A stretch of 64,000 bases of DNA from a virus. The translations under genes and the position numbers were made by a program. The stretch is from IMG/VR virus record IMGVR_UViG_3300025120_009955, positions 8,357 through 72,356 of that record; one strand, written 5' to 3'. How positions within the stretch are numbered: position 1 is the stretch's first letter; each line of letters starts with the position of its first letter. This document shows, one piece after another, positions 20,607 through 37,298 of the stretch. The notes beneath the pieces are model-generated. The model was given only the letters and a program-made list of their open reading frames with translations. It made no database searches and had not been told where the DNA came from.

Positions 20607-21065
20607 ATGAGACACGTAATATTGGTGTTACTTTTCAGCTTGACATTTCTATTCAAGCCAGTAGTAGCACAACCACTTAAAGATTTTACATTTAAAAGCC
20701 CAGCCTTTAATGGTAATGGGTATTCTGCACACGTCTTAACAATAGAAAACCAAGAACATTCACGTAAAAAAGCTATCGCAGAAAAGATAGAAGCCAAACT
20801 AAAACAAGAACAAGCAGACGCAGAAAATACTAATGTTAAAAAATTCATGAGCAACTTAGAATCACGTATATATGCTCAAATATCACAGGACGTTGCCACA
20901 GCAATGTTTAACGATGATGGCTCATCACCAACATCAGGTTCACTAAACTTTGAAGGAAATATTATTACTTGGGATAAAAGCTCAGGTGACATAGTGCTAG
21001 GGGTTACAGATTTAGTAGGAACAACTACTACATTGACAATACCGTTAGGTGATTTTACATTCTAA
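20607..21065 (+). CDS. csgF: curli assembly protein CsgF-like
   Basis: signal peptide then FTFKSPAFNGNG, matching CsgF F.NP.FGG; upstream of csgG. Confidence 0.8.
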   Translation: MRHVILVLLFSLTFLFKPVVAQPLKDFTFKSPAFNGNGYSAHVLTIENQEHSRKKAIAEKIEAKLKQEQADAENTNVKKFMSNLESRIYAQISQDVATAMFNDDGSSPTSGSLNFEGNIITWDKSSGDIVLGVTDLVGTTTTLTIPLGDFTF

Positions 21066-22650: not shown

Positions 22651-22651
22651 T

Positions 22652-22807
22652 ATGCAAACTCAAAAACAACATCTGGTGATAATGATGCAGGACCTAAATG
22701 CTCTTAGGCAAGAAGTAGCATTGTCACCAAACGGTGTAAACTCTATTTTAAAAGAAATAGATGAACGTGGTTGCGAGTTATTATATCAGTATCTAGCAAC
22801 TCCATGA
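22652..22807 (+). CDS. hypothetical small protein (51 aa, not in ORF track)
   Basis: MQTQKQHLV...YLATP; stop overlaps the next start (ATGA). Confidence 0.45.
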   Translation: MQTQKQHLVIMMQDLNALRQEVALSPNGVNSILKEIDERGCELLYQYLATP

Positions 22808-23916
22808 TCAAGTTACTCGTAGTTTTACTCATGGCTATTCCCCAAATAGCTATGGGTGCTATTGGTACTATCTCACAACAAGAACAAGATCCAGCAAGAA
22901 TTACTCGTAAAGATATAACTCTCAAAGGTGTTAAAGGTGTGGGTGTAGAAATGAAAGATAGTCTACGCACAGGAGCCGGCACACTTGAAATTACATTTGA
23001 AGATGACACACAGGTACAGATGACAGAGTCAGCTAAGTTAACCATTGATGACTTTATATACGACCCCAACAACAAGGACGCAGGCAAACTAGCAATTAAG
23101 ATAGGCCGAGGCACAGCCCGTTATGCGTCAGGCCAGATAGCAAAGGATCGTCCACAAGCAGTTAAAATTAGAACACCAAGTGCAACAGTAGCAGTTAGAG
23201 GTACTGACTTTACGGCTACAGTAGATGAAATAGGTGCTACCACAGTTATTCTATTACCTAGTTGTCCTCAAGGTTGGATAGATATTCAACAAGATTGTAA
23301 GACTGGTGCTATTGAAGTTATAAGTTTAGGTGGAAGTGTTTATATGGATAAACCATTTGAAGCAACTCGTGTACCTAATCTAGAATCAAAACCAAGTCCG
23401 CCAGTTATAGTTGATCTGACTGAAGAAATGATCCGTGCGATTATTATAGTGGGTACACCACGAGAAGTTAAAGAAGAAGAACGTAAACAACTTGCAAAGA
23501 ATGCCTTAGACCAAAATGCCTTGGACCAAGAACAATTAGAAAACGAATTAGATAAACAAGCACAAGAACTAGAGCAATACAATGCCAGCTCAAGACTAAG
23601 TCGTAATCTATTAGACAGAGATTTTTTAGCCAACATATTAGACATACTTAATTTGCAATTAATGAATGCACAGGCTCGTGTGTTAAGCAGTACACAAAAA
23701 AATTCAATACTACCAGACTATATTCCAGACCAAGGTGTAGAAGCTTATGTGGATAGTATGCACGTGGAACTATGTATAGACACCATTGGTAGTGACATTG
23801 CCTGTGTTAAAACACCAACCACACAAGAAAGTACTATACGTCAGATACAGGGCACTGTAGATATAACTAACAGAGTTAATAGTGAAGGTACAACTGTTAT
23901 TACTACGAGACAATAA
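22804..23916 (+). CDS. FecR-domain secreted protein
   Basis: signal peptide; D.LRTG, ITFEDDT, IRTPSATVAVRGTDF. Confidence 0.85.
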   Translation: MIKLLVVLLMAIPQIAMGAIGTISQQEQDPARITRKDITLKGVKGVGVEMKDSLRTGAGTLEITFEDDTQVQMTESAKLTIDDFIYDPNNKDAGKLAIKIGRGTARYASGQIAKDRPQAVKIRTPSATVAVRGTDFTATVDEIGATTVILLPSCPQGWIDIQQDCKTGAIEVISLGGSVYMDKPFEATRVPNLESKPSPPVIVDLTEEMIRAIIIVGTPREVKEEERKQLAKNALDQNALDQEQLENELDKQAQELEQYNASSRLSRNLLDRDFLANILDILNLQLMNAQARVLSSTQKNSILPDYIPDQGVEAYVDSMHVELCIDTIGSDIACVKTPTTQESTIRQIQGTVDITNRVNSEGTTVITTRQ

Positions 23917-25430
23917 TGAGAGCCAGCATACTATTATTTTTGTTGTTAATTTTCCAGCATTTATTCGCAACAAAAGCACAAGCCTTAGATATCCTAATCT
24001 ATCACAGCAACTATGTCTATACTGATTCAAAGACAGGACTTGAAGCAAAAGGTTATACAGTATCGGGTTCAACATCAACCACAGTTGCTTCAGCATCTAC
24101 TCTGGCAAACTATGATATAGTATTTGATCAACTATACAACAACAACTGTGGATCTACTTGTCGTGCTAACTATGACACCTATGTCAAGGACGGTGGCACT
24201 CTAGTTATTGTAGGAGAGAACTCAAATTTTTCTAGTAGAAACAATACTGTTATAAGTCTCATTGAGAACAAGTTTGGTGGCACATTGGATCTAGGTTCAA
24301 ATGTTTCTGGTGGTGCTACTTACTCTACAGCAGATAACACAGTCAATACATCAATCAGTGGCACTGACGATGGCGGACAATACATCTATGGTTCCAGTAT
24401 AGCAAATACATCTGACGGCGTCTGGGTAGCAAAGACTGGTGGTGGTGCTGTCATTTGGATGATGTGGCGTGGCAGTAGTTTACCAAGTGGCTATACAGGT
24501 TCTGTTATAGTTACGTTTGACATCAATCAGTTCGACGATATGTATGACACCTCTGAGACTTGGGAATTCGTTGATGATGTGATCTACTATGGTATCAACG
24601 GTGAAATGGAATCAAGTGGCACAACAACTACTACAACAACAGGAACAAGCTCAGGTATATCAGGCGGACAGAGTACACAAGTTACTACTGATCGTGCAAG
24701 AGCGGCAACTATTAAAAGTACTTCTGGTGCTAGTGATAACTCAGTTTATATAGAACAAGCTGGTGACAGTAATACTGTGGAGATTCTACAAGATGGTTCA
24801 TCAGGTAATCATATAAGAGGTATTGGACAAAATATGGCTGATATAACAGGTGATTCAAATGATCTTGAAATAAAGCAAGGTGCTGGTACATCAGGTGATG
24901 GAGTTAATTTAATTGAATTAATGATTGATGGTGACACTAATGACCTAAAACTATATCAAGATAGATATGATGATGGAACAGCAGATGCAGATCCGACTGG
25001 TGACCATATTATTAAACTCAATGTCGATGGTAATTTAAATGACATTGAAGTAATTCAACGATCAAATGGCACAGATGGTCATTATGCAGATATAGATGTG
25101 ACTGGCAATTCTAGTAATTTTGATATTCTACAAAAAGGTCAACACGAAAAACAATTGTTTATAGATGTAACAGGCAATAGCAATATAATAGATGTTGAAC
25201 AAAGAGATAGCACATCTAAATTTGCGGATATAAAATTAATTGGAAATGGTCATGATGTGACTGTACTACAAAAAGGAACAGGTGCTCATAACGCAACAAT
25301 TGATTTAACTTTTGGTTCTGGAGCAAGCACTGTAGATTTAACACAACAAGGTACTTCAAATCAATCATATTCGCTAGAACAAATTTGTTACAATGTATCC
25401 GGGTGTTCAACTACAGTAACACAAGAATAA
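23916..25430 (+). CDS. secreted protein: N-terminal globular domain plus C-terminal curlin-like repeats
   Basis: signal peptide; Thr-rich linker; repeats such as NSVYIEQAGDSNTVEILQDG. Confidence 0.7.
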   Translation: MRASILLFLLLIFQHLFATKAQALDILIYHSNYVYTDSKTGLEAKGYTVSGSTSTTVASASTLANYDIVFDQLYNNNCGSTCRANYDTYVKDGGTLVIVGENSNFSSRNNTVISLIENKFGGTLDLGSNVSGGATYSTADNTVNTSISGTDDGGQYIYGSSIANTSDGVWVAKTGGGAVIWMMWRGSSLPSGYTGSVIVTFDINQFDDMYDTSETWEFVDDVIYYGINGEMESSGTTTTTTTGTSSGISGGQSTQVTTDRARAATIKSTSGASDNSVYIEQAGDSNTVEILQDGSSGNHIRGIGQNMADITGDSNDLEIKQGAGTSGDGVNLIELMIDGDTNDLKLYQDRYDDGTADADPTGDHIIKLNVDGNLNDIEVIQRSNGTDGHYADIDVTGNSSNFDILQKGQHEKQLFIDVTGNSNIIDVEQRDSTSKFADIKLIGNGHDVTVLQKGTGAHNATIDLTFGSGASTVDLTQQGTSNQSYSLEQICYNVSGCSTTVTQE

Positions 25431-25455: not shown

Positions 25456-25529
25456 TTGACTCTATTAATAAAATCCCATATAATTAATATTACAATTTTG
25501 TAACACTCTTGTTACATCTTGTATAAATA
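25456..25529 (+). promoter_or_regulatory. xoxF promoter region: sigma70 promoter, inverted repeat and late promoter
   Basis: TTGACT(25456)-17-TATAAT(25479); TGTAAC-N6-GTTACA (25499-25516); TATAAATA (25522-25529). Confidence 0.7.
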
Positions 25530-25632
25530 AAAGTGTAGCAGTTCTAACTGTTATATTTAGAGTGGACGCGGTTTCCAATATTCATGAAACAACCGGCACG
25601 TTTAATCAACTTTTCTCTAAAGGAAAAAATCA

Positions 25633-27507
25633 ATGCAATTAAATAAAATTAAACTAGCTCTTGGTTTTATCACTGTAGCGACCCTAGCTTCATCAGGTGC
25701 GTTTGCGGCGGCAGATCAAGAGAAAGCAATGGCAAATGCTAACAACTGGGCACACCCTAGAGGTCAGCACGATAACCAGGCTTATTCTAAGTTGACTCAA
25801 ATCAACAAAGGTAATATTAAAAATCTTAAAGCGGCTTGGACATTAAGTACAGGCGTAAATAGAGGACACGAAGGTGCCCCTCTAGTTATTGGTAATATGC
25901 TATATGTACATACAGCATTTCCAAATAACGTATATGCTTTAGATTTAAACAACAACCAAAAAGTTGTATGGTCTTACTTCCCTAAACAAGATCCTAGCGT
26001 TCAAGCAGTTCTATGTTGCGATAACGTTAACCGTGGTCTTGGTTTTGGTAACGGTAAAATCTTCTTACAACAAAACGATGGTATGTTAGTAGCATTAGAT
26101 GCAAAAACAGGTGCTAAAGTTTGGGACGTAAGTAATACAGATCCTAAAGTTGGTGCTACAAATACTAACGCTCCTCACGTAATTAAAGACAAAGTTCTTA
26201 CTGGTTGTTCTGGTGCAGAATTTGGTGTTCGTTGCTTTATAGCGGCATATAACATTGAAGACGGTTCTTTAGCTTGGAAAGCTATGAGTACAGGTCCTGA
26301 CGAAGAAGTATTAATTGGTAAAGATTTCAACAAAGAAAATCCACTTTATTCAGCTCTATCAGTTTACGAAGATGTAAACGGTGGTAACGTTGAAGGCGGT
26401 TCTTTCAAAAGAATTCCAACTGATCAACTTGAAGCTCCAGTAGCAGACCTAGGTCTTAAGACTTGGTTGAAACCACAAGCTGTTAAAGATGGTTGGCAAC
26501 ACGGTGGTGGTTCTGTATGGGGTTGGTGGCCATATGATGCTAAGACTAACTTAGTATACTACGGTACAGGTAATCCTTCAGTATGGAATCCAGATGTACG
26601 TCCAGGTGACAACAAATGGTCTATGACAGTGTTCGCACGTGATCTAGATACAGGTATGGCACGTTGGGGTATGCAAATGACACCACACGATGAATGGGAT
26701 TATGACGGTATTAACGAAGTTATCCTATTTGACAAAGGTGGAAAAACATACGCTTGGCACCATGACAGAAACGGTTTTGCATACACTTGGGTAGCTAGTA
26801 ACGGTACTTTAGTTTCAGCTGAAAAAGTGCATCCATTCGTTAACTGGTCAACTGGTATTGATCTTAAAACTGGTGTGCCACAAAAAGAAGCGGCACATTC
26901 AACACACCAAGATTACAACACTAAAGGCACTTGTCCTGCGGCACTTGGTACTAAAGACCAACAGCCTGCGGCATATTCACCTAAGACAGGTTTAATATAC
27001 TCACCACTTAACCACGTATGTATGACATACGAACCAGTTGAGTCTAAGTATGTTGCTGGTCAACCTTGGGTTGGTGCTACTTTAACTATGTTTGCTGGTC
27101 CTGATGGCGTAATGGGTGGCTTTGCCGCTTATGATCCAATGACTAACAAAAAAGTATGGTACAACAAAGAGAAATTCTCAGCTTGGGGCGGTGCATTAAC
27201 AACAGCTTCAGACTTAGTTTTCTATGGTACTTTAGATCGTTGGTTTAAAGCGTTAGATGCAAAATCAGGTAAAGAACTTTGGAAATTCCAAGTTGGTTCT
27301 GGCGTGATTGGTAATGCGTTTACGTACTCACACAAAGGCAAACAGCACGTTGGCGTACTATCAGGTATTGGTGGTTGGGCTGGTGTTGCTATGAACCTTG
27401 GTCTAACAAATGACACAGATGCACTTGGTGCGGCTGGTGGTTATAAAGAGTTAACAAAGTATAATGCGGCTCCAGGTGGCGGTGCATTAACAGTGTTCTC
27501 ACTATAA
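25633..27507 (+). CDS. xoxF: lanthanide-dependent PQQ methanol dehydrogenase XoxF (Methylophilaceae XoxF4-like)
   Basis: signal peptide, vicinal CCD, GAEFGVR, GNPS.WN, DEWDYDG with the extra lanthanide-binding Asp (MxaF has DYAG). Confidence 0.95.
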   Translation: MQLNKIKLALGFITVATLASSGAFAAADQEKAMANANNWAHPRGQHDNQAYSKLTQINKGNIKNLKAAWTLSTGVNRGHEGAPLVIGNMLYVHTAFPNNVYALDLNNNQKVVWSYFPKQDPSVQAVLCCDNVNRGLGFGNGKIFLQQNDGMLVALDAKTGAKVWDVSNTDPKVGATNTNAPHVIKDKVLTGCSGAEFGVRCFIAAYNIEDGSLAWKAMSTGPDEEVLIGKDFNKENPLYSALSVYEDVNGGNVEGGSFKRIPTDQLEAPVADLGLKTWLKPQAVKDGWQHGGGSVWGWWPYDAKTNLVYYGTGNPSVWNPDVRPGDNKWSMTVFARDLDTGMARWGMQMTPHDEWDYDGINEVILFDKGGKTYAWHHDRNGFAYTWVASNGTLVSAEKVHPFVNWSTGIDLKTGVPQKEAAHSTHQDYNTKGTCPAALGTKDQQPAAYSPKTGLIYSPLNHVCMTYEPVESKYVAGQPWVGATLTMFAGPDGVMGGFAAYDPMTNKKVWYNKEKFSAWGGALTTASDLVFYGTLDRWFKALDAKSGKELWKFQVGSGVIGNAFTYSHKGKQHVGVLSGIGGWAGVAMNLGLTNDTDALGAAGGYKELTKYNAAPGGGALTVFSL

Positions 27508-27533
27508 TCTAGTTAGTTAGATTGTATTACTTT

Positions 27534-27561
27534 AAAAAGGCTCTTTCGGGGGCCTTTTTTT
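27534..27561 (+). terminator. rho-independent terminator after xoxF
   Basis: AAAAAGGCTCT-TTCG-GGGGCCTTTTTTT. Confidence 0.8.
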
Positions 27562-27586
27562 ATCAATTAAACTATAAACAATAAAT

Positions 27587-30427
27587 ATGACTATGAGCTT
27601 AACTAAACCAGTTGATTACGGCACACCATTAAAAACCACAAAACCCACTATTACCCTCGAAATTGACGGTGTTGAAACTACTGTGCCTGAAGGTACAAGT
27701 ATTATGGCGGCCGCAAAAATTAACGATACTAGTATTCCAAAACTCTGCGCCACGGATAGTCTAGAACCATTTGGTAGCTGTAGACTTTGTTTGGTTGAAA
27801 TAGAAGGTAGAAAGGGTTATCCTGCAAGCTGTACCACACCTGTAAGCGAGAATATGAAGGTACGCACCCAAACACCAAAACTAGAAGAACTAAGACGTGG
27901 AGTAATGGAATTATATATTTCCGATCACCCATTAGACTGCCTAACCTGTGCAACGAATGGTGACTGTGAATTACAAGATATGGCAGGTGCTGTTGGCCTA
28001 AGAGATGTTCGTTACGGCTTCGATGGTGAAAATCATTTAGCCCAAGAGAAAGATAAAACAAATCCGTACTTTACATTTGACCCTAGCAAGTGTATTGTGT
28101 GTTCACGATGCGTTAGAGCGTGTGAAGAAGTACAAGGTACATTTGCCTTGACTATAGAAGGTAGAGGATTTGATTCAAAGGTATCAGCAGGTAATAAAGA
28201 CTTTATGGATTCAGAATGTGTTAGCTGTGGAGCCTGTGTTCAGGCCTGTCCAACAGCAACACTGATAGAAAAAACAGTAGAAGAACACGGAGTACCTGAT
28301 CGTAGTGAAACAACAACCTGTGCTTATTGTGGTGTTGGGTGTAGTTTCAACGCTGAAATGAAAGGTGATCAATTGATACGTATGGTGCCAAACAAAGACG
28401 GTGGTGCTAATCACGGACACAGTTGTGTCAAAGGACGTTTTGCCTGGGGATATGCTACACACAAAGATAGAATAACAACTCCAATGATACGTAAGTCTAT
28501 CAACGATCCATGGAAAGAAGTAACCATGGAAGAAGCTATTGATTATGCCGCTACAGAAATAAAAAGATTACAGAAAGAACACGGCCGTAATTCAGTAGGT
28601 GGTATAACATCAAGTCGTTGTACCAATGAAGAAACATATGTTGTACAAAAATTAGTACGTGCGGCACTTGGAAATAATAATGTAGACACCTGTGCTAGAG
28701 TTTGCCATTCACCAACAGGATATGGATTAAAAAGCACCTTAGGTGAAAGCTCTGGAACACAAGACTTTGACAGTATCAGAGAAACAGATGTAGCAGTTAT
28801 AATAGGTGCTAATCCTACAGACGGACATCCAGTGTTTGCTAGTCATATGAAACGTAGACTACGTGATGGAATGAAATTAATAGTAATTGATCCACGTGAG
28901 ATTGACATATTACATACCATACACGGCAATGGTGGGTTACACCTACAGCTTAAACCAGGCACTAATGTAGCAATGATAACCAGCATAGCACACGTCATAG
29001 TAACAGAAGGGCTTTGTCAAGAACAATACATAAACGATCGTTGTGAATTAGACAGCTACGAAATGTGGAAAGAATTTGTTAGTAAAAAAGAAAACAGTCC
29101 AGAAGTATTAGGACTAGAAACAGGAGTTGATCCTGAATTAATACGTGAAGCCGCGAGAATATATGCTGAACCTGGTAATTCAGCATTTTACTATGGACTA
29201 GGAGTAACAGAACATAGCCAAGGAACAACAATGGTTATGGGAATAGCTAACTTGGCAATGGCTACTGGTAACCTAGGTAAAAATGGAGCAGGAGTAAATC
29301 CATTACGTGGACAGAACAATGTCCAAGGTGCTTGTGATATGGGTAGTTTCCCACACGAGTTTCCAGGTTATAGGCACGTCAGCGAACAATCAACTAGAGA
29401 TCTTTTTGGTAACCATTGGGGAGTTGAATTAGATCACGAGCCAGGCCTACGTATTCCTAATATGTTAGACTTTGCTATAGGTGGAAAGTTTAAAGGAATC
29501 TATATCGAAGGTGAAGACATAGCACAAAGTGATCCAAATACTAAACACGTGACACGGGCCTTAGAAGAAATGGAATGTGTCATAGTACAGGATTTATTCT
29601 TAAATGAAACAGCTATGTATGCACACGTATTTTTACCTGGATCAAGTTTCTTAGAGAAGTCAGGTACCTTTACTAATGCCGAAAGAAGAATAAGTCCAGT
29701 AAGAAGAGTAATGGCTCCTAAGAATGGATATGAAGATTGGGAAATAACACAGATGCTATCTAATGCACTTGGTTACAAAATGAACTATGCAAGTGCTTCA
29801 GAAATACTTGATGAAATAGCAGAACTAACTCCAACCTTTAAAGGAGTAAGTTGGGCTAAATTAAGAGAACTAGGCAGTATACAATGGCCTTGCAATGATG
29901 AGCATCCTACAGGCACTCCTATTATGCACGTCAATGAGTTTGTGCGAGGTAAAGGAAAATTTTGGATTACAGAATACATTCCAACTGATGAGAAAGTTAA
30001 TCAACGCTTTCCGTTAATACTAACAACTGGGCGTATACTAAGTCATTACAATGTAGGTGCTCAGACTAGAAGAACTAAAAACTCAGAATGGCATCAAGAA
30101 GATCTATTAGAAATACATCCAACAGATGCAGAAGCACGTGGAATCAATGATGGTGATCCAGTTAACATTAAGAGTCGTGCAGGGCATACATCTTTAACCT
30201 GTCGTGTTACGGAACGTGTACAGCCAGGCGTAGTATATACAACATTCCATCATCCGTGGAGTGGAGCAAATGTTATCACAACTGATAACTCAGACTGGGC
30301 TACTAACTGTCCAGAGTTTAAAGTAACAGCAGTAGAAATTAGTCTAGCAGTAGAAAACAGTGAGTGGCAGAAACAGTATGAAAAATTCAGTGACACACAA
30401 AAAACTTTAGCAGAAGTACGTGACTAA
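27587..30427 (+). CDS. fdsA: NAD-linked molybdopterin formate dehydrogenase alpha subunit (FdsA-type)
   Basis: N-terminal 2Fe-2S and 4Fe-4S Cys motifs, CAYCGVGC, active-site CARVCH (Cys, not Sec), RGQNNVQG, molybdopterin-binding C-terminus. Confidence 0.93.
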   Translation: MTMSLTKPVDYGTPLKTTKPTITLEIDGVETTVPEGTSIMAAAKINDTSIPKLCATDSLEPFGSCRLCLVEIEGRKGYPASCTTPVSENMKVRTQTPKLEELRRGVMELYISDHPLDCLTCATNGDCELQDMAGAVGLRDVRYGFDGENHLAQEKDKTNPYFTFDPSKCIVCSRCVRACEEVQGTFALTIEGRGFDSKVSAGNKDFMDSECVSCGACVQACPTATLIEKTVEEHGVPDRSETTTCAYCGVGCSFNAEMKGDQLIRMVPNKDGGANHGHSCVKGRFAWGYATHKDRITTPMIRKSINDPWKEVTMEEAIDYAATEIKRLQKEHGRNSVGGITSSRCTNEETYVVQKLVRAALGNNNVDTCARVCHSPTGYGLKSTLGESSGTQDFDSIRETDVAVIIGANPTDGHPVFASHMKRRLRDGMKLIVIDPREIDILHTIHGNGGLHLQLKPGTNVAMITSIAHVIVTEGLCQEQYINDRCELDSYEMWKEFVSKKENSPEVLGLETGVDPELIREAARIYAEPGNSAFYYGLGVTEHSQGTTMVMGIANLAMATGNLGKNGAGVNPLRGQNNVQGACDMGSFPHEFPGYRHVSEQSTRDLFGNHWGVELDHEPGLRIPNMLDFAIGGKFKGIYIEGEDIAQSDPNTKHVTRALEEMECVIVQDLFLNETAMYAHVFLPGSSFLEKSGTFTNAERRISPVRRVMAPKNGYEDWEITQMLSNALGYKMNYASASEILDEIAELTPTFKGVSWAKLRELGSIQWPCNDEHPTGTPIMHVNEFVRGKGKFWITEYIPTDEKVNQRFPLILTTGRILSHYNVGAQTRRTKNSEWHQEDLLEIHPTDAEARGINDGDPVNIKSRAGHTSLTCRVTERVQPGVVYTTFHHPWSGANVITTDNSDWATNCPEFKVTAVEISLAVENSEWQKQYEKFSDTQKTLAEVRD

Positions 30428-30514
30428 AGATTACAGTTAGATTACAAAAATGCAATTAGTGCTTGCTTTTTCTTATAATCCTAGTAAAATATAGTTTTAA
30501 ATAATTAAATACAA

Positions 30515-30790
30515 TTGATGGAAACATTCAAATACTATTTCAACAAAACTATTATCACACTTTGCATTCTCTTCTTTTTCGTATTATGGTATCAAATACT
30601 TTCTAAAATCTTGTGTAGTGTGTTTTGTGAAGTTGAGACTGCAGAAGTTGTTATAGCATATGAGGATATGACTCCTGAACAACGTCGAGCAGAATTTGAA
30701 AAACTAAAAGCACAAAGGACAGCAGAAAATGAAGAAAATAGTAGTACTCCTGACACTACTGACAGTGTCAACATTAGCTCTAGCAGATAA
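30515..30790 (+). CDS. hypothetical membrane protein
   Basis: N-terminal hydrophobic segment; overlaps next gene by 62 nt. Confidence 0.45.
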   Translation: MMETFKYYFNKTIITLCILFFFVLWYQILSKILCSVFCEVETAEVVIAYEDMTPEQRRAEFEKLKAQRTAENEENSSTPDTTDSVNISSSR

Positions 30791-31295
30791 GAAAGGATAT
30801 TTTTACGGAGTTAAATTTGACCATAAAAATAGCATAGGCGGTACTGATGCTAACACCTTTGGTGTAGAGTTTGGCAAACACGTATATGATTGGTTAGATG
30901 TAAAAGTAGCAACTAACTACACCGACAAAGAAGGTAGAAGCAAAGGCAATAGCTACCGTCTTGAAGCAGGCCCAAAATTCAAACATAAACTAAATCAAGA
31001 TTGGTCAACTAGTTTGTTCCTAGCAACAGGACAAAAGTTTGTCAAAGATGATGACTATGGATATTGGGTAGTAACACCAGGAGTCAAATATAAAATTAAT
31101 CAAGACTGGAGTGTAGGCACTAGTGTTAGATTCCGTAACAGTTACGATACTAGTCACAATCAAAGTGATAGGACTTACGCTGTTAAACTAGGATATAAAA
31201 TTACACCAGATGTCTCAGTAAGTACTCGCTATAGAATGAAACGAGGTGACAGTGAATATAACGCTATTGGCGTTGGTTTCAAGTTCGAATTTTAA
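30729..31295 (+). CDS. small outer-membrane beta-barrel protein (KdgM-like porin)
   Basis: signal peptide, alternating amphipathic strands, terminal GVGFKFEF. Confidence 0.7.
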   Translation: MKKIVVLLTLLTVSTLALADKKGYFYGVKFDHKNSIGGTDANTFGVEFGKHVYDWLDVKVATNYTDKEGRSKGNSYRLEAGPKFKHKLNQDWSTSLFLATGQKFVKDDDYGYWVVTPGVKYKINQDWSVGTSVRFRNSYDTSHNQSDRTYAVKLGYKITPDVSVSTRYRMKRGDSEYNAIGVGFKFEF

Positions 31296-31340
31296 TAATA
31301 TTGTATAATGGTAGTCATTGAGTACTAAATATTAATGTAC

Positions 31341-31388
31341 TCGTTCATCCCATCAGGGACGGAAGTAGGCATAAGCTGAAGGAACGCT
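31341..31388 (+). ncRNA. glutamine riboswitch (glnA/Downstream-peptide class)
   Basis: CGTTC...TCCC-ATCA-GGGA-CGGAAGTAG-GC-ATAA-GC-TGAAG-GAACGC three-way junction with E-loop motif. Confidence 0.8.
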
Positions 31389-31409
31389 TCTTTTTAAAAG
31401 GAGATAGCT

Positions 31410-31601
31410 ATGTATACTGAAGAATATACATCCACCATATTAGAAATTGCAACACTATTAGATCTCGAAGTTAAAGAAGTAACTAACTTCCTTGAGCTAA
31501 TGCTAGATGGTTACGGTTTTACTGATGCTCTTCACGGAACGCATTTAACCAGAGATGACTGTGAACTAGTGTTAGCAGAACTTAAGAAAAGAAAAAAATA
31601 A
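31410..31601 (+). CDS. hypothetical small protein downstream of the glutamine riboswitch
   Basis: 63 aa, AAGGAG RBS. Confidence 0.7.
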   Translation: MYTEEYTSTILEIATLLDLEVKEVTNFLELMLDGYGFTDALHGTHLTRDDCELVLAELKKRKK

Positions 31602-31602
31602 T

Positions 31603-31962
31603 ATGATAGACATCTTATTCTTGTTAATGGTCAAACACTGTATCTGTGATTTAGGATTACAGAGTCAACTGCTATGGGGCAAGACCATTAACAAGCAATA
31701 TTACTTTGGCTGTCATAGTCATTATTTACATCACGCTGTTGGTACGTTCCTAGTTATACTGTTATTTTTTAATCCTTTATTGGCATTAAAAATAGCTGTC
31801 ATTGACTACATAGCACATTGGCATATTGATTATACAAAACATCGGGTGCAACTCTATTGGAATCTTGGACGAAAGGACAAGGCGTTTTGGTGGGTAACAG
31901 TAGTCGATCAATTATTACATTTCTTAACATACTATATCTTTGTTGTTTACCTAGTTAATTAA
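31603..31962 (+). CDS. DUF3307-like membrane protein
   Basis: KH.I.D...Q, H...H, HWHIDY.K, DQLLH. Confidence 0.75.
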   Translation: MIDILFLLMVKHCICDLGLQSQLLWGKTINKQYYFGCHSHYLHHAVGTFLVILLFFNPLLALKIAVIDYIAHWHIDYTKHRVQLYWNLGRKDKAFWWVTVVDQLLHFLTYYIFVVYLVN

Positions 31963-32009
31963 TATTAACGTAGCACATAAGTTATCTACGCATATTTTTA
32001 AATACTAAT

Positions 32010-32375
32010 ATGAAAGTAAACGAATTTTTTAAACACAATTTTGTTCTGATTCCAGTTATAGCATCAGTCATTTTTGGTACTGTAACAGGTATCAAGTATG
32101 TTATTGATCTTACAAACACTATTGATGCCAACAACCAACGTGTTGAAAAACTATTAGGTGACCTAGAAGGCATCGACGACAAATATCGAGACAAGATTGA
32201 CACTCTTAAAGACGATTTGAATGAAGCTGAAAACTTGAACTCACAAGAAATAGCTGAACTAAAAGCAGAAGTTGCTAAACTAGATTCAGCATTACGTATG
32301 GGTGAAGATCTTTATCGAGTGTTAGCAGATCAGGTTAGAGAACAATCATATGATATTAAAGACCTTAATCGCTAG
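32010..32375 (+). CDS. membrane-anchored coiled-coil protein
   Basis: one TM helix then heptad repeats. Confidence 0.65.
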   Translation: MKVNEFFKHNFVLIPVIASVIFGTVTGIKYVIDLTNTIDANNQRVEKLLGDLEGIDDKYRDKIDTLKDDLNEAENLNSQEIAELKAEVAKLDSALRMGEDLYRVLADQVREQSYDIKDLNR

Positions 32376-33051
32376 TATAATCCTACTTACTATAAGTCAA
32401 TCAGTACTTGCTCGTAACGACTACCTAAACGGACAATCCTGGCAACAGTGTAATAAAGGAACTATTTCAACCTACGGTAGTTACAATCAACAAGACAACA
32501 CTAACTACAATGGGCAAAATTATCCTGGTAGGTTGAGTGATAACTCCAGTAACTTTGGTGGCAGTCAAGGGGACAGTCAACAAATTGGCATAAACTTTAC
32601 CTGGTTTTTAGGTAGTAACTGTACAGACGAAGTACAAGACTTTATGTTTGACTCAATGAAGATCAACAGACAACTTGAACTAGCTAAAATGTGTCAACGC
32701 TACAAGCATAAAGAACTACCAGATAACTTTGCTGAACTTAGATCAGTGTGTGCAGGCTTTCCAGATGATATTGAGAATGAGCATAGACCACCAGAAGGTA
32801 GTGGTAGTTACTATGATGAACTCTTGCAAGAAATTAAAGACGGCAAACATCCTGACAAGAATCCTAAAAAATATCATTCAGACGATGTTAAGGTACCTTT
32901 CCAAGATAGTTTAAAACTAAAGTATGATGGTAAGGATACTAAAACACATAAATTAAAAGTTCCTAAGGGAATGGATAAACCTCGTCTGACAGACGAGTAT
33001 GGTCTTCCATTGCCCTACACAATACCTGAACCTAAAGTAGTGTTCGAATAA
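32350..33051 (+). CDS. secreted hypothetical protein
   Basis: signal peptide, four Cys. Confidence 0.65.
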   Translation: MILKTLIASIILLTISQSVLARNDYLNGQSWQQCNKGTISTYGSYNQQDNTNYNGQNYPGRLSDNSSNFGGSQGDSQQIGINFTWFLGSNCTDEVQDFMFDSMKINRQLELAKMCQRYKHKELPDNFAELRSVCAGFPDDIENEHRPPEGSGSYYDELLQEIKDGKHPDKNPKKYHSDDVKVPFQDSLKLKYDGKDTKTHKLKVPKGMDKPRLTDEYGLPLPYTIPEPKVVFE

Positions 33052-33110
33052 GTTCTAGTAAAATCTCATTTTTGATAGTATAATATAATTAATTTATATA
33101 GGAGTTATCT

Positions 33111-33356
33111 ATGAAAGTATTACGATTTACAGCAGTCTGGTGTGAACCGTGCAAGATGTTAGCAAAGAATTTAGACAATGTTACAACACAAGTGCCTATC
33201 CAGGTACTCGATATTGACAAAGAAGAAGATTTAGCTAGACACTTTAATGTGCGTTCAGTACCAACATTAGTTATGATTAATGAGGACAAGAAAGAAGTAA
33301 AACGTGTAGTTGGAGTGCAATCAGTAAAACAACTTAACCAGTTTATCAATGAATAG
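33111..33356 (+). CDS. thioredoxin
   Basis: WCEPC, SVPT. Confidence 0.9.
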   Translation: MKVLRFTAVWCEPCKMLAKNLDNVTTQVPIQVLDIDKEEDLARHFNVRSVPTLVMINEDKKEVKRVVGVQSVKQLNQFINE

Positions 33357-33530
33357 AAACTAATGGTTTTCAGTATGCTTTTTATATAAAAGTATCATAT
33401 AATTAACATAAGTAATAACAGTAACACGTTGTTACTCAAAGAAGCGAATCATCAAATTGGACCTGTGGTAACACTCTCCAATGATTTGGCTAGCCGACAT
33501 ATTATTAATTTTTTAAAAAGGAATACTATT

Positions 33531-33602
33531 ATGTGGACTACACCTCAAGCAACTGAAATGCGTTTCGGTTTTGAAGTAACTATGTACGTAATGAACAAGT
33601 AA
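33531..33602 (+). CDS. pqqA: pyrroloquinoline quinone precursor peptide PqqA (23 aa, not in ORF track)
   Basis: MWTTPQATEMRFGFEVTMYVMNK with E-x-x-x-Y; AAGGA RBS; own terminator. Confidence 0.95.
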   Translation: MWTTPQATEMRFGFEVTMYVMNK

Positions 33603-33625
33603 TACCTGTTTATACAATACAGATT

Positions 33626-33655
33626 AAAAAAGCACTCTTCGGAGTGCTTTTTTTT
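33626..33655 (+). terminator. rho-independent terminator after pqqA
   Basis: AAAAAGCACTC-TTCG-GAGTGCTTTTTTTT. Confidence 0.85.
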
Positions 33656-33713
33656 GACTTATTATTCAGACTATGTTATAATAACAATTAACTCTTAACA
33701 GATAAATACTAGT

Positions 33714-34433
33714 ATGAGATACTTGTTTGCTGTAGCGTTATTAGTACTTTCATTCGTGGCTTCATCTGCACCGAATCCAGACTTATGGCCGTATGTGCAA
33801 GAAAGATTATTCAATGACCGTATAGCAGTAGAAGCAGATCCTCTAGAGCTATCTATAGATGGACCAAAAAGAGCGGCAAGTGGTGCTCAAGTTCCTATTA
33901 CTATCAAAGTAAATTCAAAAAAATTCAAAAAACTATATCTTATAATAGATGCTAATCCTACACAGCACGCCGCCACATTTACGTTAACTGAAAGCACTCA
34001 AACAACTGAGATAATGACACGTATTAGGATGGAAACAGATAGTTTTGTCCGTGTAATCGCTGAAGATGAAAATGGGCATTTATCAATGAGTGCAAAAGCT
34101 ATTAGAGCATCAGGTGGTTGTAGTGGATATATGGATTCAAGCGATCCTGAATTAACCAAAGCCTTAGGTAAAATCCTTTACAAAGCTAAAAACGGGTACC
34201 AGACGACTAGAATTAAACATCCTATGTTTACTGGACTACAAAAAGATTCAATTAACGGATGGTATGTACCAGAATGGATTATTAACCGTGTAGAATGGTA
34301 TGACGGTGCTTTACTAGTAATGTCAGTAGACACTAATATTTCAATGTCACAAGATCCATATTTTAAATTTAAATATTCAAGTCCTGTTACAATCATAGCA
34401 ACAGATACTAAAGACAATAAATGGTCTAAGTAG
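33714..34433 (+). CDS. quinoprotein dehydrogenase-associated SoxYZ-like carrier
   Basis: signal peptide; SoxY-like half (LIIDANP, TRIRMETDS.VR, ASGGC) fused to SoxZ-like half (IKHPMFTGLQKD, ISMSQDPY). Confidence 0.85.
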   Translation: MRYLFAVALLVLSFVASSAPNPDLWPYVQERLFNDRIAVEADPLELSIDGPKRAASGAQVPITIKVNSKKFKKLYLIIDANPTQHAATFTLTESTQTTEIMTRIRMETDSFVRVIAEDENGHLSMSAKAIRASGGCSGYMDSSDPELTKALGKILYKAKNGYQTTRIKHPMFTGLQKDSINGWYVPEWIINRVEWYDGALLVMSVDTNISMSQDPYFKFKYSSPVTIIATDTKDNKWSK

Positions 34434-34505
34434 TATTCTTTTCTTGCATTTTATCCAAAAAGAATGTATAATATTGTATTATTAACGTTAACTCGGAGAA
34501 GCCAC

Positions 34506-34766
34506 GTGGAAAATGAATTAGAAACAGTAATTACTAGTGAAAGTTTAGATGTCGAACAAGCATCACAGAACATAGGCGGAAGTCGATTTGATCTAATATT
34601 AATTGCGTCACATCGGGCACGTGATATAGCAAATACACGTAAAATTGCAGAGAGAGGTAACCCTGATAAGAAATGGTCTTGTAGACCTACTACAGAAGCA
34701 TTGCACGAAATTGAAACAGGAAGTATTGGTAGAGAACTTTTAGACCAAATAGCAAAGGAAAAATAG
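34506..34766 (+). CDS. rpoZ: RNA polymerase omega subunit-like protein
   Basis: SRFDLILIASHRARDI...PTTEALHEIETG; GTG start after GGAG. Confidence 0.8.
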   Translation: MENELETVITSESLDVEQASQNIGGSRFDLILIASHRARDIANTRKIAERGNPDKKWSCRPTTEALHEIETGSIGRELLDQIAKEK

Positions 34767-35020: not shown

Positions 35021-35095
35021 GCACCCATCGTCTATCGGTTAGGACACCGGGTTTTCATCCCGGCAAGGGGAGTTCGATTCTCCCTGGGTGTACCA
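35021..35095 (+). tRNA. tRNA-Glu(TTC)
   Basis: cloverleaf; anticodon arm CCGGG-TT-TTC-AT-CCCGG; encoded CCA. Confidence 0.93.
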
Positions 35096-35100
35096 ATTTT

Positions 35101-35176
35101 GCCCTCTTAGCTCAGTTGGTAGAGCAACGCACTTGTAATGCGTAGGTCGTCAGTTCGAATCCGACAGAGGGCACCA
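35101..35176 (+). tRNA. tRNA-Thr(TGT)
   Basis: cloverleaf; ACGCA-CT-TGT-AA-TGCGT; encoded CCA. Confidence 0.95.
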
Positions 35177-35182
35177 AGATAA

Positions 35183-35272
35183 GGAAGTGTGGCTGAGTGG
35201 CTTAAAGCTCTGGTTTACTAAACCAGTGATCGGGAAACTGGTCCGTGGGTTCGAATCCTACCACTTCCGCCA
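35183..35272 (+). tRNA. tRNA-Ser(ACT)
   Basis: type II tRNA with long variable arm, G73 discriminator, CTGGT-TT-ACT-AA-ACCAG. Confidence 0.88.
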
Positions 35273-35285: not shown

Positions 35286-37298
35286 ATGATTAAAAAGATA
35301 TTATTAAGTCCGTGGACAGCAGTTGTTACGCTGTCCATAATTGTTTATATAGCACTAAGTAGTCCTATATTTTTAGAATCGGTTAAGTTAAGATACTTCG
35401 ACCAACTAATTACCTCACAGCCTGAACAACAAACAACAATAGCAACGGTTAACATAGATGAAGCAAGTCTAGACAAGTATGGGCAGTGGCCATTCAGTCG
35501 TGATGTATATGGTGACATAATCAAAGACCTATATGATCGTGGTGCCGGTTTAGTAGTATGGAACATATTAATGTCTGAAGAAGACCGATTGGGTATGGAT
35601 CATAAGCTACAAGAAGTATTACGAGAACACCCTGTTGTTTTACCGTTAGTGGGTGCAGAAGAAACTAAAAATTCACCACGCAATCCTGGTGCAGTTATGA
35701 TAGGTGATCCTACAAACAAAGTAGTAGAGTATCCAGGTATACTATCAAGTATTGATCATCACGAAAGTCTGGCATATGGTAGTGGTATAAGTTCAGTATT
35801 TCCAGAAGTAGATGGTGTAACTCGTAGGATGCCGTTAGTAATTAAAAGTGGAGATACACTGTACCCAAGTTTAGGTTTAGAAGTCCTACGCATATTAGCA
35901 GGTGATCCAAGTTTCCAAATTAAATTTTCAGACATAGGCATTGACAAACTACGTGTACCACAGTTTGGTATTGTTTCAACAGATCCTGTAGGGCGTATAT
36001 GGATTGATCATCAACAGCGTCCTCAGAGTTATAGTCTAACAGAATTACCAGAAACATTTGATAGTGGTATAGTTATAGTAGGAACATCAGCCGCGGGCAT
36101 TGCAAATCCGATAGCAACTAGTCGTGGTGAAGTATGGCCGCAAGACTTACAAGCGAGTGTGATAGCAACATTAGCAAGTGGTATCAATATTCAACGTCCA
36201 GACTGGGCAAGAGGTGCTGAATTATTAACACTAATTACCTTAAGTATTTTACTGCTACTACTGTCTAGATGGATATATGTAGGGCTAGGTGTAAGCATTG
36301 TTGTACTAGGTAGCCTAGTGCCAGTTACAGAATACGTATACGCAGAATATTTAATGTTGTTTGATGCTACTCTAGTACTAGGTGGCGGAATACTTGTGTT
36401 ATTGCACGCATATGGTATTAAGTTTGTAAGTGAATACCTGCAGAAACAACAGATCAAGAAACAGTTTGGAACATACCTATCACCGGCTATGGTTGAGAAA
36501 CTACAGAAAAATCCAGAGCTATTGAAGTTAGGTGGAGAAACAAGACAGTTAAGCATAATGTTTACAGATGTACGTGGATTTACAACTATATCAGAACACT
36601 ATGGCGATGATGTACAAGGACTTACTAGTATCATGAATCGTTATATGACTGCTATGACTGAGAAGATTATTGAAAACGGTGGCACAATAGACAAATATAT
36701 TGGAGATGCCCAGATGGCTTTCTGGAATGCTCCTATAGACGACCCCGATCACGCAGAGAACGCTGTAAGAACAGCATTAAAGATGATAGGGAGTTTGAAT
36801 GAGTTTAATGAAGAAATTAAAAAAGAAGGTATACCACCTTTTGCAATGGGATTGGGGATTAATTCCGGTTCTTGTGTCGTTGGGAATTTTGGTAGTGTTC
36901 AACGTTTCGATTATACTTGCCTCGGGGATACTGTCAACTTGGCCGCAAGGTTAGAAGGACAGAGTAAAAACTACGGAGTTGATATTATATTAGGTCAAGG
37001 CACTGTGGAATATATAAAACACAAGATTGATGTAGGATTAATTGAACTAGATAATATCGCAGTTAAAGGAAAAACACAAGGAGTTAAAATATATACAATT
37101 GGTAATGTTGAAGTGAGTAAACATCAAGAATTCCTTGACAACTACTACGCAGGCAATTGGGAAGATGCTCTTTACATAGCTAGAAGATTTGCAAACGATG
37201 ACAATGTTATCTCTGGCTATTATCAAAAAATGGTCGAAAGACTTATACAAGGGTGCCCAGACGATTGGGACGGAACATTTCGAGCAAAAACTAAATAA
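35286..37298 (+). CDS. CHASE2-domain class III adenylate/guanylate cyclase
   Basis: IDEASL..YGQWPFSR, DGVTRR (CHASE2); TM helices; FTDVRGFT, DKYIGDA, GDTVNLAARLEG. Confidence 0.93.
   Translation: MIKKILLSPWTAVVTLSIIVYIALSSPIFLESVKLRYFDQLITSQPEQQTTIATVNIDEASLDKYGQWPFSRDVYGDIIKDLYDRGAGLVVWNILMSEEDRLGMDHKLQEVLREHPVVLPLVGAEETKNSPRNPGAVMIGDPTNKVVEYPGILSSIDHHESLAYGSGISSVFPEVDGVTRRMPLVIKSGDTLYPSLGLEVLRILAGDPSFQIKFSDIGIDKLRVPQFGIVSTDPVGRIWIDHQQRPQSYSLTELPETFDSGIVIVGTSAAGIANPIATSRGEVWPQDLQASVIATLASGINIQRPDWARGAELLTLITLSILLLLLSRWIYVGLGVSIVVLGSLVPVTEYVYAEYLMLFDATLVLGGGILVLLHAYGIKFVSEYLQKQQIKKQFGTYLSPAMVEKLQKNPELLKLGGETRQLSIMFTDVRGFTTISEHYGDDVQGLTSIMNRYMTAMTEKIIENGGTIDKYIGDAQMAFWNAPIDDPDHAENAVRTALKMIGSLNEFNEEIKKEGIPPFAMGLGINSGSCVVGNFGSVQRFDYTCLGDTVNLAARLEGQSKNYGVDIILGQGTVEYIKHKIDVGLIELDNIAVKGKTQGVKIYTIGNVEVSKHQEFLDNYYAGNWEDALYIARRFANDDNVISGYYQKMVERLIQGCPDDWDGTFRAKTK

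Follow-up and report, generated by a model that had tools for sequence, protein, structure and literature searches.

Why would a phage carry genes for the oxidation of methanol? Among the volatile carbon sources of the sea methanol is a major one, and its main consumers include OM43-type Methylophilaceae. Within a 64,000-nucleotide stretch of viral DNA, hereafter the window, we analyzed a variable auxiliary island that spans from curli/FecR genes to a CHASE2 cyclase and holds xoxF, fdsA, pqqA and a SoxYZ-like fusion gene. A preliminary description had called these four genes intact, and the products of all four indeed exceeded curated family cut-offs. Taken as a whole, the explanation that we consider likely is that the window belongs to a jumbo phage related to Melnitz and pelagimyophage-like phages, infecting pelagic marine Methylophilaceae (OM43-like), and that its variable island carries four host-derived C1-energy genes that would sustain methanol oxidation during infection.

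The xoxF gene (25633..27507, + strand) encodes a predicted lanthanide-type PQQ methanol dehydrogenase of 624 aa with an N-terminal signal-like segment. The protein scored 607.9 bits against TIGR03075, the methanol/ethanol PQQ-dehydrogenase family (cut-off 480.05), also matched PF01011, and had the lanthanide XoxF structures 6oc5 and 6dam as its closest solved structures. We take the defining residues of XoxF to be a vicinal Cys-Cys pair and an extra Asp two positions after the catalytic Asp (D-x-D, with Ala in MxaF). The phage protein carries CC at 128-129 and DEWDYD at 353-358, the latter aligned to the same motif in 6oc5, which by these family criteria points to a lanthanide-type enzyme. Phage XoxF was 84-88% identical to Methylophilaceae XoxF. 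In the tree, viral XoxFs were polyphyletic among host XoxFs, their monophyly being rejected by the AU test (p 4.6e-5), and this recalls the polyphyly reported for viral psbA.

The fdsA gene (27587..30427, + strand), ahead of which no Shine-Dalgarno sequence was seen by eye, encodes the predicted alpha (Mo-bisMGD, Fe-S) subunit of an NAD-linked formate dehydrogenase (946 aa). Its product exceeded the cut-off of TIGR01591 (884.8 bits vs 666.25), contains the full NuoG-like Fe-S N-terminus together with the Mo-bisMGD domains in Pfam, and aligned over its full length with R. capsulatus FdsA (6tg9_A, 1453 bits). This alignment placed the retained motifs VCHSPT at 372 and LRGQNN at 573, which presumably provide the Mo-ligand Cys-His and the active-site Arg, as in the R. 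capsulatus enzyme. Compared with R. capsulatus FdsGBA(D) (6TG9/6TGA), the Fe-S and Mo-site motifs are the same, whereas the phage FdsA is encoded alone. The host operon is ordered fdsG-fdsB-fdsA-fdhD; host FdsG, FdsB and FdhD and the 69-aa ORF of the operon found no match in the 72-kb record (about 20% of the genome), and neither fdsC/fdhD nor fdsD lies beside the phage gene. Since fdsA is the only gene of the operon on the fragment, the phage FdsA would have to use host partners, and the earlier statement that the phage supplies the terminal step of the pathway was too strong. In a structure model, residues 1-250 of phage FdsA with host FdsB and FdsG scored 0.90 against 0.40 for the best of three controls, a pass that may reflect memory, as a solved complex of this kind exists (6TG9/6TGA). 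Among solved complexes, 51 of 78 attained this score mark, and among mismatched pairs 2 of 108; runs agreed in at least 97% of contacts, with partner pLDDT of at least 81. The model supports the view that phage FdsA may bind host FdsB and FdsG.

We then asked where the phage FdsA belongs among its cellular relatives. In the tree it fell inside the Methylophilaceae clade, as a well-supported clade of its own made up of uncultured sequences on a stem of 0.43. FdsA was present in all 121 Methylophilaceae genomes searched, none with a full-length protein above 77% identity; the best cellular FdsA among 80 loci listed from a scan of species genomes with at least 600 pattern matches was 77% identical, and one 320-aa Methylophilaceae piece reached 82%. 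Among the matches listed, at least 63 protein clusters were 90-96% identical to the phage FdsA, and one of these (L012) has phage-like neighbors without fdsG or fdsB. A more distant related phage (L010/L011) has an alphaproteobacterial-type FdsA, captured independently. All seven members of the phage clade kept 419 of the 433 columns invariant across 25 cellular FdsA proteins, and all 26 invariant Cys. The dN/dS was 0.10 for FdsA (396 codons), about 0.10 for XoxF and 0.17-0.24 for SoxYZ. The GC3 of the module genes (0.24-0.26) is in line with that of phage genes (0.18-0.28). By these comparisons the phage FdsA is not host DNA, a derivation of the module genes from Methylophilaceae is supported, and so is purifying selection on them. 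Such selection, together with the diverse FdsA clade and the independent capture in a related phage, argues for a selected function.

The two remaining genes lie next to each other. The pqqA gene (33531..33602, + strand) encodes a 23-aa PQQ precursor peptide that scored 38.1 bits against TIGR02107 (cut-off 20), contains E-x3-Y as E-V-T-M-Y, and is also found in relatives G001, L003 and G132. The SoxYZ-like fusion gene (33714..34433, + strand) encodes a 239-aa carrier of the quinoprotein-dehydrogenase-associated SoxY-SoxZ family (TIGR04557, 197.5 bits, cut-off 140), which by reading has the carrier Cys in SGGCSG ending the SoxY part and a hydrophobic N-terminal segment, and is predicted to be exported. 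The gene might instead encode a sulfur carrier, for thiosulfate or persulfide, as an auxiliary metabolic gene (AMG) unrelated to xoxF and pqqA. In 2021, phage genes for a fused SoxY-SoxZ with this ggCs carrier motif were published from marine myoviruses, a Methylophilales-like clade among them; the available passages of that paper (PMC8190135) describe purifying selection on these genes and read them as thiosulfate-oxidation AMGs. In host G004, BigR-like, sulfide:quinone reductase-like and persulfide-dioxygenase-like genes come after the homologue. However, the present protein, encoded beside pqqA and near xoxF, matches TIGR04557 and stays under the true-family cut-offs for SoxY (64.5 vs 125) and SoxZ (44.5 vs 76), as do all three other viral homologues tested. 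Moreover, the gene adjoins pqqA in host and phage alike, and SoxB (TIGR04486) was found in none of five host-type genomes, with a control that matched 10 of 14 genomes, one above the cut-off. A sulfur carrier is in our view possible but the less probable identity. The preliminary description, for its part, had made this protein an accessory carrier for methanol oxidation, which is an overstatement, since its basis is a family name and a gene neighborhood.

Two of the four genes carry promoter motifs common to other phage genes. A sigma-70-type promoter-like site, TTGACT-N17-TATAAT, lies upstream of xoxF (25456..25484, + strand) and a second ahead of the SoxYZ-like gene (33654..33682, + strand); these are two of the six copies that the window contains, where 0.09 would be expected. 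The phage-style promoters described earlier hold for this motif, but not for TATAAATA, which follows the promoter-like site ahead of xoxF (25522-25529) and is not enriched in the window (5 copies vs 10 expected), nor for promoter-like sites in general, whose count was not above shuffles (25 vs 33.9). The TTCG-loop terminators came down to one, after pqqA (33626..33653, listed without strand; 12-bp stem), which the terminator scan found; a similar hairpin with a T-run after xoxF (27534..27562, + strand) was seen by eye and is unlisted in the scan, and the general terminator-like count was not above shuffles (6 vs 5.0).

The interleaving of the four genes with phage genes was confirmed. Between fdsA and pqqA, all on the + strand, lie an outer-membrane beta-barrel-like protein of 188 aa with a signal-like N-terminus (30729..31295), which scored slightly under the cut-off of PF13505 (28.3 vs 28.7 bits) and had no PHROG or NCBIfam match; a glutamine riboswitch (glnA RNA motif, 31340..31390; RF01739, 61.9 bits, gathering score 35) preceding a 63-aa ORF and a DUF3307 membrane protein gene (phrog_2470; together 31410..31962); two overlapping ORFs of 121 aa and 233 aa (32010..33051); and a thioredoxin (WCEPC, 33111..33356; PF00085, 1.7e-16; phrog_22). 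Neither of the two overlapping ORFs matched Pfam at the default threshold, and their PHROG matches were weak (E ~1e-3). The 121-aa product has a membrane anchor and a coiled coil by eye, with weak spanin-like PHROG matches, and the 233-aa product has a signal-like N-terminus; the only NCBIfam row for the former, NheB, was rejected as spurious (E 0.0029, 16.8 bits vs a cut-off of 500). A cluster of tRNA-Glu, tRNA-Thr and tRNA-Ser (35021..35272, + strand) closes the island. Its content varies: related phages have xoxF and pqqA but lack both fdsA and the SoxYZ gene, and the island of G001 holds PstS, AhpC and a porin instead. Because relatives have xoxF and pqqA alone, the four parts did not come down together as a single cassette; they are cargo of an island whose content varies. 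Because near relatives are without both, fdsA and the SoxYZ gene are not essential to the phage family.

The DNA is phage. Its source record of 72,356 bp is classed as viral by IMG/VR and is about 20% complete, the full genome being estimated at about 350 kb, that of a jumbo phage. The preliminary description had proposed to confirm terminase and capsid genes on the same contig. The 72-kb record itself yielded neither these nor a portal gene: the PF03237 profile (large terminase) matched in none of four records including the source record (G000), and a Gp23 profile search matched nothing among the controls. Because no such gene was found on the record, its viral identity rests on the classification and on its relatives. 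A 104-kb viral contig (G001) has collinear homologues for 59 of 104 ORFs. G130 matches 26 of 106 queries, 19 of them within one collinear block, and encodes TerL (phrog_36964, 400.8 bits) and virion proteins; G132, a 356-kb phage rated 96% complete, matches 39 of 106. A terminase was found in G130 and also in G131 and G132. One backbone protein matches T4-like cyanophages and the OM43 phage Melnitz, and a phrog_455 protein is common to the present phage and Melnitz/pelagimyophages at about 40% identity. The relatives also encode radical-SAM/SPASM genes, whose role is unassigned. Instead of a virulent phage, the element could be a prophage-like island or a large mobile element of some other kind. 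This would fit a record that is linear and incomplete and in which many ORFs belong to no family; we nevertheless consider it very improbable, given that relatives measuring 342-356 kb encode TerL and have been rated as viruses 95-96% complete, that G130 encodes TerL and virion proteins, and that csgGF, permuted tmRNA, glutamine riboswitch and tRNAs are common to the present family and Melnitz-like phages (PMC9004378, in the passages available). Melnitz itself has 141 kb by the same passages, vs about 350 kb for the present family. Because the samples containing the module are marine, an OM43-like member of the Methylophilaceae is the probable host. The phage would be about a quarter of the size of a 1.3-Mb OM43-type host genome.

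An assembly chimera or cellular contamination, in which host xoxF/fds DNA became attached to phage sequence or everything on the contig is cellular, could be suspected because host xoxF and fdsA are only 12-13 kb apart, pqqA is a repeat-like node in assembly graphs, and no structural gene was found on the contig. At least 80% of the sampled words of the module were present in 14 DNA runs, and the module occurred in 20 runs in all (14 DNA, 6 RNA) from 13 studies. Three DNA runs, each from a different study, covered all 30 bins at even depth, a per-contig figure from run data that are contigs rather than reads, and contigs bridged the junctions of xoxF and fdsA (e.g. 25467-27719) and of fdsA and the next gene (30050-31055). 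The even coverage across the module that the preliminary description had asked for was thereby observed for contigs, and by this even depth and the bridging contigs the module is not a chimera. The assembly graph breaks at pqqA (33549-33660), where depth is 2- to 30-fold higher owing to similar sequence elsewhere in the samples. The RNA evidence is weak: in one metatranscriptome, short contigs lay on xoxF, fdsA (30348-30575, 0 mismatches) and the cyclase, with DNA carry-over possible. Furthermore, the host neighbors fdsG, fdsB and fdhD are absent, both flanks are collinear with viral contigs, and no cellular genome among those searched had, at the best loci listed, a full-length FdsA above 77%. 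Chimera or contamination is thus largely refuted, with a residual probability that we regard as minimal, and the earlier view of phage DNA rather than a cellular chromosome stands. The module has viral flanks, coverage equal to that of the virus and signs of purifying selection, which are among the usual criteria for auxiliary metabolic genes.

We propose that the phage would resupply C1-energy components during infection, so that oxidation of methanol to CO2 would go on providing its replication with ATP and NADH. At the entry step, XoxF would act as a periplasmic lanthanide/PQQ methanol dehydrogenase and would depend on the host to make PQQ, take up lanthanide and provide cytochrome partners; pqqA would supply the peptide consumed in making PQQ; and the SoxYZ-like protein would be an exported cysteine carrier from a family whose genes neighbor those of quinoprotein dehydrogenases. 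FdsA, as catalytic subunit of a cytoplasmic NAD-linked formate dehydrogenase, would assemble with host FdsB/FdsG after maturation by host FdhD and give NADH at the last step. Cyanophage psbA and psbD are phage copies of core host-derived energy-conversion subunits that work inside a host complex. An energy-sustaining auxiliary role, as with psbA, would be the most economical reading, although the present module concerns chemotrophic C1 oxidation, not photosynthesis, and is known here from its genes. The genes could be genuine cargo with another benefit, such as routing C1 carbon to CO2 and reducing power for nucleotides, removing toxic formaldehyde or formate, or they could be passing 'moron' cargo with little effect. 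Ribonucleotide reductase, thioredoxin and nucleotide genes on the same contig, the variability of the island with relatives without fdsA, and the preference for redirection to nucleotide synthesis in the available part of PMC7678222 favor such benefits, whereas purifying selection, the diverse uncultured FdsA clade and independent capture point to a selected function; we judge them rather unlikely. These readings overlap with that of sustained methanol oxidation and are inseparable by sequence.

Methanol dehydrogenase and PqqA in T4-like Methylophilaceae phages were published in 2020 (PMC7678222). In the passages available of that paper, the Lake Baikal contigs VP_139 and VP_266 resemble the present phage in being uncultured and myophage-like with Methylophilaceae as predicted host; they have a GC of about 35% and carry methanol dehydrogenase, PqqA, ribonucleotide reductase and radical-SAM genes, which are read as AMGs boosting methanol oxidation, with an argument for redirection of C1 carbon to nucleotide synthesis. 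By description they are freshwater phages whereas the present one is marine, and the same passages report neither a formate dehydrogenase nor a SoxYZ-like gene, both of which the present phage has. The available passages on Melnitz contain no 'formate' and no methanol dehydrogenase gene, PQQ appearing there only as a growth-medium ingredient (PMC9004378), and a formate dehydrogenase is mentioned for one 'deep' pelagimyophage in those of PMC7029224. The novelty claimed earlier was overstated, each part having precedents in phages; for the four-part combination, and likewise for the Methylophilaceae-phage FdsA clade, we found no published description.

More tentatively, and as a joint claim that we hold to be possible rather than probable, a cosmopolitan marine jumbo phage may take over both energy-yielding ends of methanol oxidation through its own XoxF and FdsA lineages plus PqqA, and the fused 'soxYZ' genes that are counted as sulfur-oxidation AMGs in ocean viromes may, at least in phages of methylotrophs, encode accessory carriers for PQQ/lanthanide dehydrogenases. 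The surprise is limited, as a phage methanol dehydrogenase with pqqA was already published. The finding suggests that part of the phage 'soxYZ' sulfur AMGs be reinterpreted, and it offers two experimentally tractable proteins, a lanthanide-type enzyme from a virus and a Mo-enzyme subunit that is orphan and needs host partners. If true, the marine gene pools of xoxF, fdsA and soxYZ, like the methanol-to-CO2 flux, would in part be viral, surveys counting these genes would include viral copies, and infected cells would be a distinct metabolic state for C1 turnover.

The four intact genes that the preliminary description had placed within 25.6-34.4 kb were confirmed, with family scores above the respective cut-offs for all of them. 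The xoxF gene (25633-27507) encodes a 624-aa PQQ dehydrogenase (TIGR03075, 607.9 bits; cut-off 480), which carries the motifs CC at residues 128-129 and DEWDYD at residues 353-358 and finds its closest solved structures in the lanthanide enzymes XoxF 6oc5 and 6dam. The 946-aa product of fdsA (27587-30427) scored 884.8 bits with TIGR01591 (cut-off 666) and 1453 bits against R. capsulatus FdsA (6tg9_A), and retains the motifs VCHSPT and LRGQNN. No Shine-Dalgarno sequence was seen in the fdsA start region (27563-27590), where ATAAATA lies 4 nt 5' of the ATG; some FdsA homologues begin two codons downstream (944 aa). The pqqA gene (33531-33602) encodes 23 aa (TIGR02107, 38.1 bits against 20). The last gene (33714-34433) encodes a SoxY-SoxZ fusion of 239 aa, predicted to be exported, which reached 197.5 bits (cut-off 140) with TIGR04557, the family titled 'quinoprotein dehydrogenase-associated SoxYZ-like carrier', fell under the cut-offs of true SoxY and true SoxZ, and retains the GGC carrier cysteine. 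Between fdsA and pqqA, the island contains a small ORF resembling an OMP barrel, a glutamine riboswitch (31340-31390, + strand; RF01739, 61.9 bits against 35) with a 63-aa ORF and a DUF3307/phrog_2470 membrane protein downstream of it, two ORFs with no family match at the default threshold, and a thioredoxin gene; three tRNAs lie at the end of the stretch.

We then considered whether the module could have arisen from a chimeric join, which coverage breaks would reveal. The 9.9-kb module was found near-identical in 14 DNA runs (80-96% of its sampled words) and, together with six RNA runs, the whole module or part of it was present in 20 runs from 13 studies, all labelled marine, seawater or brine. 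Freshwater Ca. Methylopumilus was dropped as a candidate host, as all DNA runs with the module proved to be of these types. Contigs of three DNA runs from three studies were placed on 21-39 kb in 30 bins; all 30 bins were covered, at depths of about 112-195, 13-20 and 4-12, respectively, and depth was even except in the xoxF bins of one run and in the pqqA bin. The xoxF-fdsA junction was crossed by contigs spanning 25467-27719, 27325-28374 and 26860-27987, the junction of fdsA with the next gene by a contig spanning 30050-31055, and contigs also ran through 31027-33571. The assembly graph broke only at pqqA and the tRNAs. Over the 3' half of pqqA and its terminator (33549-33660), all three metagenomes had a 2- to 30-fold surplus depth and several alternative flanks, showing that similar sequence is present elsewhere in the samples; three pqqA copies with 79-86% nucleotide identity were found in host-type genomes. 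This evidence against a chimeric join is good but not final because it comes from contigs rather than reads.

The record itself is a linear IMG/VR virus record, a single sequence of 72,356 bp with a CheckV completeness of approximately 20%, of which the window covers bases 8357-72356. It carries genes for ribonucleotide reductase (RNR), an ATP-dependent ligase, DnaK, GroEL/ES and CsgG, and also has a permuted tmRNA and numerous orphan ORFs. Terminal repeats of 10-600 bp were sought on it and not found, so neither circularity nor completeness can be claimed. A terminase, which the preliminary description had proposed to confirm on the same contig, was not found on the 72-kb record itself, and a profile search for the Gp23 family matched nothing, control genomes included, and is hence uninformative on the capsid. 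The case for phage identity, judged from sequence comparison, is carried by three relatives. The entire record is collinear with G001, a viral contig of 104 kb, on which 59 of the record's 104 ORFs have matches at 24-84% identity and xoxF and pqqA occupy the same slot. A 122-kb viral contig (G130) matched 26 of 106 queries, 19 of them within one collinear block corresponding to the left 17 kb of the record, and upstream of this block lie genes for a large terminase, which exceeded the PF03237 cut-off and scored 400.8 bits with phrog_36964, and for virion structural proteins. A 356-kb viral record rated 96% complete (G132) has 39 of 106 queries in common, including RNR (81%), DnaK (69%), the ligase (60%) and pqqA, and carries a terminase. 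The phrog_455 backbone protein of the record has matches in T4-like cyanophages and in the OM43 phage Melnitz, and the csgG, permuted tmRNA and riboswitch of the record resemble the csgGF, permuted tmRNA and glutamine riboswitch described for Melnitz-like phages in the accessible part of PMC9004378.

Comparison of these relatives indicated that the four genes lie in a variable island. To its left is a CsgG gene (PF03783) with genes for FecR-domain and curlin-repeat proteins (20607-25430), and to its right a CHASE2-adenylate/guanylate cyclase gene (35286-37298); both flanks are conserved in G001, the cyclase at 53% identity. The corresponding slot of G001 (L002, 12066-16785) encodes an LpxH-like phosphoesterase, PstS (316 bits), a porin-like protein, PqqA and AhpC (316 bits), without fdsA and the carrier. 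In another relative (L003), pqqA lies directly 3' of xoxF, and G132 (loci L318-L335) has a 78% identical pqqA at 5877-5945 without xoxF and fdsA, which makes pqqA more widespread than xoxF in this phage family. Searches of five related viral records (G130-G134) for XoxF and FdsA found neither; these records are partly fragments, and G130 stops short of the island. This differing gene content shows the four parts to be cargo of a hypervariable island and not one inherited cassette. A 100-aa ORF (34464-34766, + strand) scored just below the threshold for RNA polymerase omega (TIGR00690, 23.1 bits; threshold 23.6) and has a homologue in G132 (37% identity). Elsewhere in the window, the permuted (two-piece) tmRNA (51031-51339, + strand; RF04321, 128.9 bits; RF01850, 127.3 bits; also found by ARAGORN) lies just 5' of groES/groEL. 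The phage has a full set of chaperone genes, including those for DnaK, GroES and GroEL, at 16390-18831 and 51529-53477. By its position, the 100-aa ORF 5' of groEL is taken as GroES, and DnaK shares 67% identity with bacterial-type DnaK from GenBank phage-collection records, which may themselves be host DNA.

The window contains six exact sites of the motif TTGACT-N17-TATAAT where 0.09 would be expected by chance, all on the + strand (25456, 33654, 48071, 48489, 56404 and 60694), and two of them stand upstream of xoxF and the carrier gene. Three of the six sites have TTGACTTTTTGGT in common. This motif is probably the early promoter type of the phage. Generic promoter-like and terminator-like counts in the window showed no excess over shuffled sequence. 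As a late promoter, TATAAATA was rejected, being not enriched in the window, although copies do precede dnaK, xoxF and groES.

Phylogenetic comparison with Methylophilaceae connected both enzymes to this family. XoxF is 84-88% identical to Methylophilaceae XoxF across the family, and the window copy forms with one metagenome protein a clade of its own, sister to the small-genome pelagic group; other viral copies adjoin different host lineages. Monophyly of the five viral XoxF rows was rejected (p-AU 4.6e-5, for a group chosen after the tree was seen), and xoxF must accordingly have undergone repeated capture or exchange. FdsA shows a different pattern, the window-type sequences forming a well-supported clade with a long stem (0.43) within the Methylophilaceae clade. 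All 121 Methylophilaceae genomes searched contain FdsA, with a full-length identity to the phage protein of at most 77%, and one 320-aa fragment reached 82%; the best cellular FdsA likewise showed 77% identity, as the best of 80 loci kept among 600 pattern matches listed from the species-genome collection. Metagenomes contain the exact FdsA protein and, among the clusters listed, 63 others that are 90-96% identical to it, on contigs of up to 315 kb, other long ones measuring 184 and 189 kb. A search of metagenome contigs with FdsA gave relatives of at most 77% among the matches listed, and is uninformative on closer ones. In L012, a member of the window's FdsA clade, the genes ahead of fdsA encode AdoHcy hydrolase, radical-SAM and nucleotidyl-transferase proteins, and not FdsG/FdsB. 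In a more distant pair of related phage contigs (L010, 10001-12847; L011, 5967-8813), fdsA follows directly after RNR genes, its product groups with alphaproteobacterial sequences, and its GC of 0.58 and GC3 of 0.69 stand against a locus GC of 0.42, which points to a capture that looks independent and compositionally recent.

The genes are under purifying selection: dN/dS was 0.10 for FdsA (window versus L012, 396 codons, dS 0.60); for XoxF the ratio was approximately 0.10, and the carrier gave values of 0.17-0.24. Of the 433 columns that do not vary among 25 cellular FdsA sequences, 419 are conserved in all seven FdsA clade members, as is each of the 26 invariant cysteines. The GC3 of the module genes matches that of other genes of the phage.

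Fused phage soxYZ, with one Methylophilales-like clade, has been interpreted as a thiosulfate AMG in the part of PMC8190135 available to us. This reading fits poorly here, given the TIGR04557 assignment and the absence of SoxB from the five host-type genomes searched. Two host-type genomes (G004 and G082) each encode a 56% identical homologue of the carrier at a distance of 1.3 kb from a tandem pair of pqqA copies. Annotation of its neighbours, which covered G004, placed BigR-like, sulfide:quinone-reductase-like and persulfide-dioxygenase-like genes after the homologue. The carrier may have a persulfide role. Eight further viral contigs encode homologues with 59-61% identity, and all three tested belong to TIGR04557.

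In the accessible parts of the papers concerned, T4-like Methylophilaceae phages from Lake Baikal are reported to carry methanol dehydrogenase and PqqA (PMC7678222), and a deep pelagimyophage is mentioned as having a formate dehydrogenase (PMC7029224). Outside the gene tables in the supplements of PMC7678222, PMC7029224 and PMC8190135, which may list such genes, we found no published description of the four-part combination, of xoxF in a marine Methylophilaceae phage, or of the window's FdsA clade; nor did we find phage fdsA described in methylotroph phages, including in the available text of PMC8163748, PMC8262872, PMC8953757 and PMC10904782. In the GenBank phage collection, from which records near the window may be absent, the carrier had no match and the sole match for XoxF was a gcd with 25% identity, present in two records; FdsA matched 38 records, mostly unannotated fragments or bacterial genome records resembling host DNA.

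The host operon has the order fdsG-fdsB-fdsA-fdhD plus a 69-aa ORF, whereas the phage fragment has fdsA only, and the phage subunit must therefore join host FdsB/FdsG, with maturation by host FdhD. A predicted complex of host FdsB and FdsG with the first 250 residues of phage FdsA scored 0.90, against 0.40 for the best of three controls; 51 of 78 solved complexes attained this mark, as did 2 of 108 mismatched pairs, contact agreement between runs was at least 97%, and partner pLDDT was at least 81. The model supports binding of this region to host FdsB/FdsG, and because a like complex has already been solved, it shows likeness rather than proof.

Collectively, the proposal that the phage sustains methylotrophic energy metabolism is partly supported, as regards intact genes on non-chimeric phage DNA, but it is tempered by an fdsA without its host partner genes on the fragment and by the published phage methanol dehydrogenase and PqqA. 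An overlapping alternative, proposed for the Baikal phages, is that carbon and reducing power are redirected to nucleotide synthesis. Under sustained C1 oxidation, which we infer, phage FdsA would assemble with host FdsB/FdsG, with host FdhD maturing it, XoxF would rely on host PQQ synthesis, lanthanide uptake and cytochrome partners, and phage PqqA would be extra substrate for host PQQ synthesis. The phage would in this manner replenish the enzyme of the entry step, the peptide that is consumed for the cofactor and the catalytic subunit for the final step yielding NADH, and C1 oxidation would then go on during infection.
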